Assembly (NCBI GenBank): GCA_050952645.1
Contig: JBMNLI010000012.1
Coordinates: 290,835 to 354,834, forward strand
From: Bdellovibrionota bacterium
Lineage (GTDB): Bacteria > Bdellovibrionota_C > UBA2361 > CAKMMH01
Direction of reading: 5' to 3'
Length of the DNA: 64,000 nucleotides
This document shows positions 5,272 to 50,158 of the stretch, one piece after another; position 1 is the first letter of the stretch, and the number at the start of each line of letters is the position of its first letter. The position numbers and the translations under genes are program-made. Below the pieces are notes generated by a model, which saw only the letters and a list, made by a program, of their open reading frames with translations, searched no databases and had not been told where the DNA came from.

Positions 5272-5362
5272 AATTCTTCACGTTTTAAGGTGATTTTAAG
5301 CTCTTAAAGTTAGCAAAAGTTAGCATAGTCTAGTCTTAGGAAGCCTTAAAACGTGAAGAACT
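5272..5362. mobile_element. MITE family copy 1 (short)
   Basis: Perfect 17-bp inverted repeat ttcttcacgttttaagg (5274-5290) / ccttaaaacgtgaagaa (5344-5360), same ends as the other copies. Confidence 0.85.
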
Positions 5363-9273: not shown

Positions 9274-9495
9274 GGCTCTTCACCGTTTTAAGTGGATTAA
9301 AGACCTTAAAATTAGTATCACGCACCCCACAAAGCCTAAAAGAAAATTGACTTTAAAGAAATTTGCATAAAATAAATTACTTTAAATATAGTTGTAATTT
9401 TTCTTTAAACTATAGCTAGTTTTTTACAAAAGCCAATTTTCTTTTAAGCTAACCTAAAAAACAATTTTTCTAACCCACCCAAAACATGAAGAACC
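9274..9495. mobile_element. MITE family copy 2 (long form, intron-free)
   Basis: Ends ggctcttcaccgttttaagtgg / ccacccaaaacatgaagaacc. Flanks aatttttc (9266-9273) and aatttctc (9496-9503) match 7/8 as a TSD. Inner IR at 9338-9354 / 9429-9445. Confidence 0.9.
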
Positions 9496-17820: not shown

Positions 17821-17831
17821 AATATCTCTCG

Positions 17832-17893
17832 CTTATAATATCTAGCTTATAATATTCTAGATTATAATATCTAGATTATAATATCTAGATTAT
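17832..17893. repeat. 14-bp tandem repeat (a/c)ttataatatctag, about 4.5 copies
   Basis: Units start at 17832, 17846 (15 bp), 17861 and 17875, then a partial unit. Confidence 0.9.
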
Positions 17894-18091
17894 ATAACAG
17901 TTATCGTTAACTAAATTCTTCACGTTTTAAGGTGTTTTTAAATCCTAAAAAATTAGCATCATCCACCCACAGAAGCCCAAAAGAAAATTGACTTTAAATG
18001 AATTTGCATAAAATAAATTACTTTTAATATAGCTGTAATTTTTTTTTGAAACTATAGCTAGTTTTATATAAAAGTCAATTTTCTTTTAAGC

Positions 18092-19989
18092 GTGTGCCGG
18101 GCACGACATAGTTCTAGCGGGTGAAAGTCCCGTCACGGGTAGTTGTCACCAAGTGTAGTGATGCCACAAGCTCGAAGCAGTAATGTTAGAGTGAAGGAAG
18201 TGGCGGATCAAAACCAAGGAGCCTACGAACAGAAACCAGATACAAGGCTAAATGGTGGGTGAGGTTGCGCTACAAACCGAAGCCCTAAAGACAAACGTAA
18301 AACCAAACGAGTAAATCTGGAGGTTGTCTGGTGAAAGAACTATGCCTTACCCCGGGAGGTCCAGATAAGCGTGCTATGCACGTGCGATATAAAGCTTATA
18401 TCTGGAAGTCAGTTGATACCATAGTACTTGAGACACCACTCAAGGAAGGGTTGAACGTTAATATATTGTGAATCACTGTAAGCAAGGCTAGAAGAGTCCG
18501 AAATTGAAGATATGCCTAACAAACAGGAACGTAACCTGTGGGGGCAGAAGATAGAGGGGGTGTTTTCTAGTAGCTTTACAAACAGAGGGAGGAGCAACAG
18601 GTGGAATTGATTGAACTGATTATATCAGACAAAAATATAGATGAGGCTATAAAGGCTGTTAAGCGAAATAAAGGTGCATCTGGTGTAGATGATATGCCAG
18701 TAGATGAGCTTGAAGACTATTTTGCCGTTCACAGAGAAGAGATAAAATCTCAGATACGTGAAGGGAATTATAAGCCGAGTCCAGTTAAGAGAGTGTATAT
18801 ACCTAAAGCTAATGGTAAGATGAGACCTTTAGGAATACCTACAGTAGTAGATAGGGTAATTCAACAAGCGGTAGCGCAAATACTAGCACGCGGATACGAA
18901 AAAGTATTTTAGTAATAGTAGCTATGGCTTTAGACCTAGAAGGAATTGCCATCTAGCAGTATATAGAACTCTTGAGTACTTGAAAAGAGGCTATGATTGG
19001 GTTATAGACCTAGACATAGAGAAATATTTTGATACTGTTAATCACGACAAAATTAATTTTCGATAATCAGGGAACGCATCAAAGATGCGAAGACACTACG
19101 ATTGATAAGACAGTTCTTAAGAGCTGGTATAATGGAAGATGGATTGTTTACTGTAAGTGAGAAAGGAGTTCCGCAAGGAGGTCCATTATCCCCAGTATTA
19201 TCTAACATATACCTTGATAAGCTCGACAAGGAACTGGAAGCAAGAGGACTTAAGTTTGTTAGATATGCCGATGACTGTAATATATTTGTTAGAAGTGAAA
19301 AGGCTGCTAATAGAGTAATGAAGTCCGTTGCGAGTTGGTTGGAGCGTAAGCTACGACTTAAAATTAATTCAAGTAAGAGTAAAATCTCTAGGCCGACGGA
19401 AAGCACTTTCTTAGGCTTTACCTACTGGAAGAGTGGGTATAAAACTTGGAAATGTAAACCTGCTGAAGATCGCAAACGAAAACTCTATGATAAAACTAGA
19501 GAAATTCTTTGTAGACGGAAGGCAATGGCACGAACGTTAGGTTCGACATTTCAACAGCTAAGCTGGTTAATTAAAGGTTGGATAAACTATTATAAGATAG
19601 GAACTCTTAAGACTTTTATAGATAAATATGGTCAATGGCTTAGACACAAAGTGAGGGTTATAATACTTAAACAGTGGAAATTGCCGAGACGAATCTATCT
19701 AAATCTTAAGAAATTGAACCGAATGCTTGGTTGCAATTTTAGAAATGAAGAAATCTATAAGGTTGCTAACAGCAGACTCGGCTGGTATAGACGCAGTTCG
19801 TGGTACGTAGTGAATTATGCATTAAGCCCTAAAATATTGGGGCGTAAAACAAAGGAACGAATTGGTTTAATCGACCCTTTGACGTATTACCTGAGTATTA
19901 CTTGATATTATATTAATGGAGCGCCGTATACGAGACCCGTACGTACGGTGCGACGGGAGGGAGAGGGTATAGCCCTCGCTCTACCCTAT
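18092..19989 (+). mobile_element. Group IIC intron
   Basis: 5' end GTGTG at 18092. Short domain V with CGC triad (gagcgccgtatacgagacccgtacgtacggtgcg). Domain VI ends ...ccctAT at 19989. Boundaries are confirmed by the empty site in MITE copy 2 (aagc|taac at 9449/9450). Confidence 0.95.
18601..19905 (+). CDS. ltrA: Group II intron reverse transcriptase/maturase without endonuclease domain; three 1-bp homopolymer insertions
   Basis: NKGASGVD, RPLGIPTVVDRVIQQA, YGFRP, DLDIEKYFD, GVPQGGPLSP, YADD and GWINYY. Extra bases near 18910 and 19049-19060 sum to +3. Confidence 0.95.
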
Positions 19990-20062
19990 TAACTCCCAAA
20001 AATAATTTTTCTAACCCACCTAAAACGTAAAGAACCTTTAACTATACTATTTAACTATATCA

Positions 20063-22143
20063 TTAAAGCAAAGCTTTTCTAGAGAGCCTTATTTTACCGA
20101 ATCTATCGACCTCTAAAACTTTCACTTCAATCTCATCGCCAATTTGCATCTCGTCTTCTACTCGCCTAATTTTCCTATTAGCGATCTCTGAAATATGTAA
20201 AAGCCCATCGGTGCCAGGTAGAATTTCAACGAACGCCCCAAAGTCTGCTATTCTTTTCACTATACCTTTGTATACTTTACCAACCTCGGCTTCAGCTACA
20301 ATGCTTTCTACTACCGTTAGGGCTGAATTTATATCATCTTGATTAACTGCCGTAATTGCTACTATGCTATCATCTGAAATATCTATCTTAACATTATAAG
20401 ACTCTTGAATAGACCTAATGGTTTTTCCGCCTTGCCCTATAATATCTCTTATCTTATCAGGATTAATTTTTAGCGTTACTATTTTAGGAGCGTAGCTACT
20501 AATCTCATCTTTAGGTTTACTTATAACCTCGTTCATTTTAGAAAGGATAAACATTCTTCCTTCGTAAGCTTGTGCTAAGGCTTTTTCTAGAATTTCTTTA
20601 TCTAGTCCTTTTATTTTAATATCCATTTGAAGTGCAGTTACGCCTTTAGCAGTTCCGCAAACTTTAAAGTCCATATCTCCTAAGTGATCCTCATCGCCGA
20701 GAATATCCGTTAGAACTACGAAATCATCACCTCTTTTCATTAGTCCCATTGCTACGCCTGCTGCTGGTGCTGTGATAGGAACGCCTGCGTCCATTAACGC
20801 TAAACTAGAACCGCACACGGTCGCCATGGAACTAGAACCGTTGCTTTCAGTGATTTCTGAAACTATTCTTATTACGTAAGGAAACTCTTCTTCAGGTGGC
20901 AAAATAGCGCTTACAGCACGTTCTGCTAGAGCACCGTGCCCAATTTCACGTCTCCCTGGGCCCCTTACAGGCTTAGTTTCACCTACTGAAAACGGTGGAA
21001 AATTATAGTGTAAAATAAATTTCTTTTTTGCATCATCTTCCATTAAATTATCGATTCTTTGTGCTTCGCTTTCAGCTCCTAAAGTGGTCGTAACTATAGC
21101 TTGAGTTTCCCCACGAGTAAAAAGTGAAGAACCGTGCGTTCTAGGTAGAACTCCAATCTCTATAGAGATAGGTCTTACCTCGTTAAATGCACGTCCATCT
21201 ATTCTTTTTCCTTTATCGAAAGCAAACCCTCTAACGATTTGATAATTTAAATCTTCAAATATTCTATCTATTTGAACTTTAATGTCGCTTGCGTTTTCAT
21301 CATCTTCTTTAACGAACTCTTCTACTAGTTTTTCTTTCGCTAATTTTACGGCTTTTGCTCTTTCTAATTTTTCTTTTACTTGAACTGCGTTTTTAATATC
21401 TTCAGAAATAAATTTTTTTACATCGTCAAACAATTTTTCATCGTATCTAGTATGCTCAAAAACTATTTTTTCTTTTCCTGCTTGTTTAATTAAATCTTCT
21501 TGAAGCTCGATAAGTATTTTTAATTCATTATGAGCATATATAAGTGCATCTAGCACCTCACTTTCAGGCACTTCTTTAGATTCTCCTTCTACCATTACTA
21601 TTGCATCTTTAGAACCAGCAACGATATAATTTAAATCTGCATTTTCTCTTTCAGTTGGACTTGGATTTAATCTTTAGTTTGCCGTCTATCCTACATACTC
21701 TAACTGCTGCAATTGGTCCATCAAAGGGTATCTCTGAGATTGATAAAGCTGCTGATGCACCGCACAAAGCTAGAACGTCTGTATCGTGTTCGCCCGTCTG
21801 CGCTCATAACGGTCGCAATAACTTGCACTTCTCTATTAAATCCATCTGGGAAAAGCGGTCTACAAGGTCTATCTATAAGTCTTGAAGTTAGCGTTTCAGC
21901 ATCGCTAAGTTTTCCTTCTCTTTTAAGAAATCCTCCAGGAATTTTTCCTGCTGCATAAGTTTTTTCTACATAATCTATGGTAAGAGGAAAAAAATCTCCC
22001 TCTTTTTCTTCTCCTAGACAAGCCGTAACGAGCACCACTGAGTCGTAATATCTTACGAGCACTGCTCCTGCTGCTTGTTTAGCTATTCTTCCTGTCTCTA
22101 TACTAAAATTACCACCATGAAAGTCTTTCTGTACTATAAACAT
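20063..22143 (-). CDS. pnp: Polyribonucleotide nucleotidyltransferase (frameshifts near 21667 and 21794)
   Basis: [37 protein letters not shown] and GDMDFKV motifs; KH and S1 domains; downstream of rpsO. Confidence 0.97.
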
Positions 22144-41406: not shown

Positions 41407-41511
41407 AGTTCTTTAACGTTTTAAGGTGGGTTTAAGACCTTAAAAATTAGTATCACTCACCTACGAACCCAAAAAACAATTTTTCTAACTCACCTTGAAC
41501 GTCAAAGAACC
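41407..41511. mobile_element. MITE family copy 4 (lacks the inner module)
   Basis: Ends gttctttaacgttttaaggtg / caccttgaacgtcaaagaacc. Perfect 8-bp TSD ataataat at 41399-41406 and 41512-41519. Confidence 0.9.
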
Positions 41512-49987: not shown

Positions 49988-50083
49988 TTTTTTACTCCTT
50001 TCTAGCTACTTTTTGCCAAGCAACTAACTAATTAGTTTAATAAATTTTATGTAATTATTCAAATGTAATTTGTAATATTTAAT

Positions 50084-50158
50084 GCTTCTTTACGTTTCAA
50101 GGTGATTATAATAATCGCTTTTTTTGTTAGCTTAAAATCTCTTTTAAACGTTAAAACC
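50084..50158. mobile_element. Degenerate MITE family copy 5
   Basis: ttctttacgtttcaaggtgatt ... aatctcttttaaacgttaaaacc; no TSD visible. Confidence 0.6.

Follow-up and report, generated by a model that had tools for sequence, protein, structure and literature searches.

Does an intron that sits at the foot of a palindrome inside a MITE travel with this element, or does it enter copies of the element that are already in place? The question is raised by a group IIC intron in the window, the whole stretch of 64,000 nucleotides analysed here (contig JBMNLI010000012.1, C12 in the following, positions 290,835 to 354,834, of the Bdellovibrionota bacterium assembly GCA_050952645.1). A reading made from the sequence alone had proposed that the intron uses a multicopy MITE structure as a self-propagating safe landing site and that the MITE's transposase might also move the composite. 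We compared all copies of the intron and of the MITE in this genome, related introns from other organisms, and the available parts of the articles cited by PMC number below.

Excision of the intron (18092-19989, plus strand, GTGTG...AT, 1898 nt; most other copies measure 1893-1899 nt) rebuilds a 225-bp element, which aligns from end to end with an intron-free 222-bp MITE at 9274-9495 (plus strand; 193 identities in 220 aligned columns, 7 gap columns). Both target sites of the latter are empty, and the window thus holds the empty target that the sequence-only reading had claimed. The left part of the ISL3-type MITE (17914-18091, plus strand) forms the 5′ exon, and the right part with the right TIR (19990-20036, plus strand) forms the 3′ exon, the first base of which is T; 23 of its terminal 24 nt are identical to the left end of ISL3. 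The 8-bp TSDs at 17906-17913 and 20037-20044 match at 7 of 8 positions, as do those of the intron-free copy. The proposal that the composite keeps its TIRs and TSD stands for the TSD, albeit an imperfect one, and falls short for the left TIR, which is without its terminal GG.

The intron lies at the foot of a long palindrome, and every coordinate given for this arrangement proved correct. The segments 17979-17995 and 18071-18087 complement each other exactly in inverse orientation and yield a perfect 17-bp stem (5′ and 3′ arm, both read on the plus strand), and the 75-nt loop of this stem contains two inner hairpins (18015-18041 and 18049-18064, together 18015-18064, plus strand). The exon junction AAGC|TAAC is positioned 4 nt past the stem and defines site A, with the IBS1 AAGC at 18088-18091 (plus strand), three bases of which pair with EBS1. 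A second target, site B (GGGC|T), is located at 17975-17978 on the minus strand at the other foot of the palindrome; it is unoccupied here, and its equivalent is occupied in five other MITE copies. Folded as DNA, the 5′ exon reaches −20.5 kcal/mol (z = −4.8), a value equalled by none of 200 shuffles, and the empty copy at 9274-9495 also folds better than its shuffles (z = −4.3). The window contains further members of the MITE family at 5275-5313, at 50077-50137 and at 41410-41511 (plus strand), the last being a short form of about 104 bp with neither palindromic core nor intron. A tandem repeat with a unit of about 15 bp lies immediately left of the intron-bearing MITE (17831-17885), and the window also encodes PilP and TonB-type proteins.

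The class of the intron is indicated by several features. Rfam models place group II domains D1-D4 at 18174-18345 and domains V-VI at 19919-19989 (plus strand), where sequence and model agree on the CGC catalytic triad at the base of DV as defined in PMC1702495. The intron begins with GTGTG (GUGYG) and ends with AT (AY), and domain I carries the AGGAA motif at 18195-18199; CGC triad and AGGAA are both among the IIC hallmarks in PMC1702495. Together with a short EBS1, the exon stem and a reverse transcriptase of the En-minus type, these features uphold the earlier class IIC assignment. We located EBS1 (GCUA, 18269-18272, plus strand) in the 8-nt ID3 loop at 18267-18274, which follows the pattern GC-NNNN-CA, from the covariation with IBS1 in related introns and from the consensus fold. 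The sequence-only reading had suggested that a domain-I loop GCT at 18269-18271 could pair with the exon; the location is correct and GCU does pair with this exon, but EBS1 itself comprises the four nucleotides GCUA. The consensus fold of domain I shows no EBS2 loop. Nine of the ten intron copies have T at +1, and covariation analysis did not reveal a pairing A of EBS3 for it.

The intron encodes an RT/maturase (18601-19905, plus strand) with a YADD motif, in which no endonuclease domain was found. It matches TIGR04416 at 410 bits. Its best solved homologues are the E. rectale RT (7uim, 362 bits, colinear to the end) and GsI-IIC (6ar1, 337 bits), and the scores against LtrA (165 bits) and the 6me0 maturase (133 bits) are far lower; by similarity it is assigned to class C, closest to IIC RTs. 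The protein is 433 aa long in five other copies, the frame of which is open. In the window copy the ORF is frameshifted near 18899 and 19052 as assembled; across the ten copies, 5 are open, 4 are frameshifted and 1 is split by an IS1634 element. The PNPase gene adjoining the intron-bearing MITE (20063-22143) is split into two ORFs. This and other split genes make assembly indels a likely cause of ORF breaks, and the frameshifts of the intron ORF are likely due to such errors. The IS1634-family element (1858 bp) lies inside the RT gene at C10:108923-110780 (L112), encodes a 562-aa transposase (NF033559) and occurs in 9 genome copies at 99.8-100%; at this locus an IS is nested within an intron, which is nested within a MITE array.

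The host repeat had been described as a MITE with TIRs, a TSD and a transposase source, and the genome bears this out. It contains one ISL3 (C10:339480-341339, 1.86 kb), which matches PF01610 and NF033550 above cut-off. The ends of the long MITE match those of ISL3 at 24 of 24 and 25 of 27 nt, and these roughly 25 bp of ends are all that the long form has in common with it. An 8-bp TSD with at most one mismatch flanks 25 of 46 TIR-bounded elements, compared to 3.4 expected (0 of 1000 shuffles), and no other TSD length from 4 to 11 comes close. The element is short, non-coding and multicopy, with 44 long-core copies among 143 family intervals that add up to 22.5 kb of the 1.93-Mb genome. The family is modular: forms of 104, about 200-222 and about 270 bp occur next to tandem arrays of 98-, 161- and 196-bp sub-modules. 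The 104-bp form corresponds to the long form minus the palindromic core; a short direct repeat flanks this core in the long form. Judged by sequence, the repeat is an ISL3-derived MITE family. In 40 relatives of the host, represented by fragmented assemblies, we found only two marginal matches to the MITE, and the ISL3 protein has only weak matches in 2 of 12 such assemblies.

Current activity of the family is not evident, because the start codon of the only ISL3 is out of frame with the remaining gene as assembled and because no two dispersed long MITEs are identical, the closest pair showing 4 differences in 222 positions. The landing site is repeatedly used, as had been proposed; the attribute self-propagating is doubtful at present. 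A perfect DnaA-box 9-mer occurs in the right end of ISL3 (C10:341120-341339) and in the MITEs of about 270 bp that derive from it; about 10 of the genome's 25 perfect boxes lie there.

We identified ten copies of the intron in the genome, all of full length and 0-4 substitutions apart (≤0.2%). Nine of them lie within this MITE family, at either foot of the palindrome: (i) three at site A (AAGC|TA), the window copy among them, (ii) five at site B (GGGC|T), at the palindrome's other foot and on the opposite strand, and (iii) one at the site-B equivalent (AGGC|T) in the 98-bp tandem variant. The tenth copy lies outside the family after a simple hairpin (TAGC|A). The MITE palindrome is thus the repeatedly used landing site that the earlier reading took it to be; had most copies followed ordinary terminators, the insertion in the window would have been incidental, and only 1 of 10 is found at an ordinary hairpin. 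The stem ends 3-6 nt before the junction in all ten copies, and TTCTTTT precedes RGC at all ten sites. Site-B motifs without an upstream stem are occupied in 0 of 19 cases and those with the stem in 6 of 47, which agrees with a stem requirement for insertion, at small numbers.

If the transposase had moved the composite, near-identical composites would be expected at unrelated loci with different TSDs. This was not observed. The eight occupied long MITEs are 3.2-16.2% apart (site-A hosts 7.3-16.2%, site-B hosts 3.2-11.8%), compared to the at most 0.2% between their introns. In a tree of 34 of the 44 MITE copies (10 partial or most diverged rows, all empty, were excluded and 5 were trimmed), occupied copies are scattered and do not form one clade. 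AU tests reject a single clade for all eight long-MITE hosts (p = 5e-5) and for the five site-B hosts (p = 0.00036), but not for the three site-A hosts (p = 0.078). Empty sisters exist for four of the occupied sites: a tandem neighbour each at C17:234 kb and at C7:145 kb, units of the 98-bp array at C10:108 kb and, for C6 versus C12:89 kb, copies of a duplicated segment with the same TSD. This MITE-containing segment of about 800 bp is duplicated at 97% (C6:22940-23740, C12:89013-89810, C14:19079, C7:155596); one of its copies has the intron and the others are empty or partial. Since the hosts are far more diverged than the introns, are scattered in the tree and have empty sisters, the intron most likely entered, independently, MITEs already in place, and composite transposition is rejected as the main route by host divergence and tree.

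That the ISL3 transposase nonetheless moves MITE and intron as a unit, or that recombination copies the intron between MITEs, either of which would spare part of the spread any retrohoming, appears very improbable to us, even though several properties of the composites would suit it. Both TIRs and the TSD are kept at several loci, with TSDs of 8/8 at C6 and C10:228 kb and of 7/8 at the window, C7:128 kb and C17:116 kb, and composite and ISL3 are similar in length (2.1 and 1.86 kb). In addition, a synonymous G at position 18618 marks exactly the three site-A copies, the clade of which is not rejected, and the other seven copies have A; such a split has a chance of 1 in 120, and it was noticed after the fact. 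The variant may reflect a lineage effect, recombination or an artefact, for instance of base-calling. These properties have to be set against the divergence of the hosts within each site class, which exceeds that of the introns many-fold, and against differences between hosts, which in the window copy lie as close as 14 nt to the junction. At least two retrohoming events are moreover needed to fill two opposite sites, occupied MITEs have empty tandem sisters, the left TIR of the window copy has decayed, and the assembled sequence of the only ISL3 carries a frameshift.

Independent entry raises the question of whether the intron prefers the MITE or merely meets it most often. We counted as candidate targets all non-coding sites that combine a stem with RGC|W, using custom hairpin rules. 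By these rules the MITE family provides 120-132 sites, 9 of which are occupied, and simple hairpins outside the family (loop up to 12-30 nt) provide 13-49 sites, 1 of which is occupied (p = 0.29-1.0). Per-site occupancy in the MITE is comparable to that of simple hairpins, and abundance suffices to account for the distribution. When any non-coding stem with a loop of up to 100 nt is admitted, the family is enriched (9 of 120 versus 1 of 117, p = 0.019; p = 0.0002-0.05 across thresholds). Enrichment was computed in three ways, and its outcome hinges on whether long-loop chance stems are counted as targets, which leaves room for some preference for the MITE stem.

The pairing between intron and exon bears on the same question. 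In 22 of 25 related introns the first three positions of EBS1 and IBS1 are paired; the remaining three are one partly paired case, one parsing error and one intron that lost the loop. These 25 introns comprise 23 usable of 31 inspected (from 80 loci) and 2 from pattern scans, and 15 of them come from two genomes and are hence not independent. Their 5′ exons are unique simple terminator-like hairpins with no common repeat. Among copies of such an intron in Allobaculum stercoricanis (L017-L020, L026, L029), the EBS1 loops AAUA, AUAA and GUAA match their own exons. In the intron studied here, GCUA pairs at three of four positions at the nine MITE sites, with the third pair being a wobble in six of them, and at four of four at the non-MITE site TAGC. 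An EBS1 adapted to the MITE is rejected on this basis.

An intron RNP specialised on the MITE stem, be it on its sequence or on its branched loop, as IIC-attC introns are on attC, is in our judgement unlikely. It would be in line with nine of ten copies residing in a family of such small extent, with the TTCTTTT common to all ten sites, with the use of MITE sites despite incomplete IBS1 pairing that includes one wobble at site B, and with the enrichment under the loose definition of targets. Compared to simple hairpins, however, the MITE shows no enrichment, base-pairing rules would favour GCUU over GCUA at MITE sites, the 25 related introns sit behind unique hairpins, and the burst of the intron is recent.

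The intron probably originated outside the host lineage. Its GC content is 40.5%, compared to 31.2% for the genome, and its best relatives among the 80 loci (57-77%) belong to Erysipelotrichaceae and Clostridia (Firmicutes) records. No comparable intron turned up in the fragmented assemblies of 40 host relatives, which contain one 106-nt match at 70%; metagenome contigs contributed one internally deleted relative, and viral contigs one relative at 66%. The intron was probably acquired horizontally from Firmicutes, where its relatives follow terminator-like hairpins.

Taken together, we consider it quite likely that the spread of the intron is recent and proceeded by independent retrohoming to hairpins followed by RGC|T, the majority of these sites having come from older ISL3-derived MITEs. 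The steps outlined here are modelled on PMC10190682 and PMC1702495, and activity is deduced from copy identity. The excised intron RNP would bind a stem at its base after this stem has folded in single-stranded DNA, as known from IIC chemistry; EBS1 (GCUA) would pair with the 3-4 bases at the end of the exon, and EBS3 presumably with the +1 T; reverse splicing would be followed by cDNA copying by the intron RT, probably primed at the fork. Because the MITE stem is a palindrome that ends in TTTT-RRGC-T on both strands, each MITE would offer one site per strand. The MITE would act as a passive, abundant substrate, and nine of ten copies would lie within it most likely because it supplies most of the suitable hairpins and not because the two elements travel together. 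Four observations fit this less well: independent homing does not predict the restriction of 18618-G to site A, the family is enriched under the loose definition, the stemless control (0 of 19) is small, and the strand bias is borderline with the window copy running contrary to it.

This bias concerns the orientation relative to replication. Eight of ten copies are co-oriented with G-skew (p = 0.055, borderline), and the strand used would probably be the lagging-strand template, with which these eight copies agree. The same orientation bias is reported for class C introns in PMC8919778. Such a bias would explain the use of both sites, as the MITE has one per strand. The skew switches at C12:299064, and the window copy, which lies 10 kb further on, runs against the trend. 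At the switch (about 8200 in the window) the cumulative GC skew peaks, which suggests a replication terminus within the window; a scan for a dif-like pattern returned nothing convincing.

RmInt1 homes by long EBS-IBS pairing. RmInt1, E.c.I3/I4 and c-Ha.de.I1 likewise exploit a multicopy mobile element as a non-essential target reservoir with partial occupancy, and IS targeting is described as a widely used strategy of introns (PMC3522654). These IS-homing introns enter transposase coding sequence, whereas the intron here enters a non-coding MITE via a stem and 3-4 bases. Within class IIC, the intron shares GUGYG, CGC, AGGAA, a short EBS1-IBS1 and an En-minus RT with B.h.I1, GsI-IIC and the E. 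rectale intron (7uim/7uin). According to PMC1702495, IIC introns follow 'terminator motifs or other inverted repeats', and 3-11 nt separate the stem from the splice site; the IIC RT and RNA recognize a DNA stem of about 12 bp shape-selectively (PMC10190682). Terminators and attC are given as IIC targets in PMC4424553 and PMC3001079, and the terminator view is repeated in PMC8643678 and PMC12584367. Terminator-type IIC introns likewise insert a few nucleotides after a stem, but the intron here relies mainly on a single dispersed transposon, both strands of which serve as targets, and the stem of this transposon, 17-19 bp long, closes a branched loop of 70-75 nt in place of a short loop. IIC-attC introns (S.ma.I2) also belong to class C, and their target, too, is an imperfect palindrome that is repeated and mobile and that folds in single-stranded DNA (PMC3001079, PMC4424553). 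They enter the bottom strand only and form their own clade, whereas the intron here uses both strands and has relatives after terminator-like hairpins; identity with IIC-attC introns is rejected, since this intron has inserted at MITE stems, on either strand, and at a single simple hairpin, not at attC. An ISL3-mobilised MITE of Microcystis aeruginosa likewise has GGCTCTTC-type ends, 8-bp duplications and an internal stem-loop; the available part of PMC11448079 reports no intron in it, and the family here is modular. In our search of open-access articles, we found no description of a IIC intron that targets a MITE.

The case is explained by the known hairpin targeting of IIC introns meeting an abundant source of hairpins, and neither a new mechanism nor co-transposition follows from the data. 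A broader reading, which we regard as possible but on balance doubtful, is that a MITE burst licenses a foreign IIC intron and that dispersed mobile palindromes constitute a third general class of IIC targets, with specialisation perhaps underway. If so, the few simple hairpins with a matching IBS1 (13-49) would contrast with about 120 MITE sites that offer a target whichever the direction of the fork, and recognition of this third class would take place at the foot of a branched stem whose loop measures 70-75 nt. The genome provides a natural dataset for IIC recognition, with about 120 near-identical sites, 9 of them occupied, on both strands and with stemless variants as controls. The data indicate that IIC introns can use a long stem with a large branched loop, in keeping with recognition of shape at the base of the stem, and that one non-autonomous element can set the carrying capacity of another.
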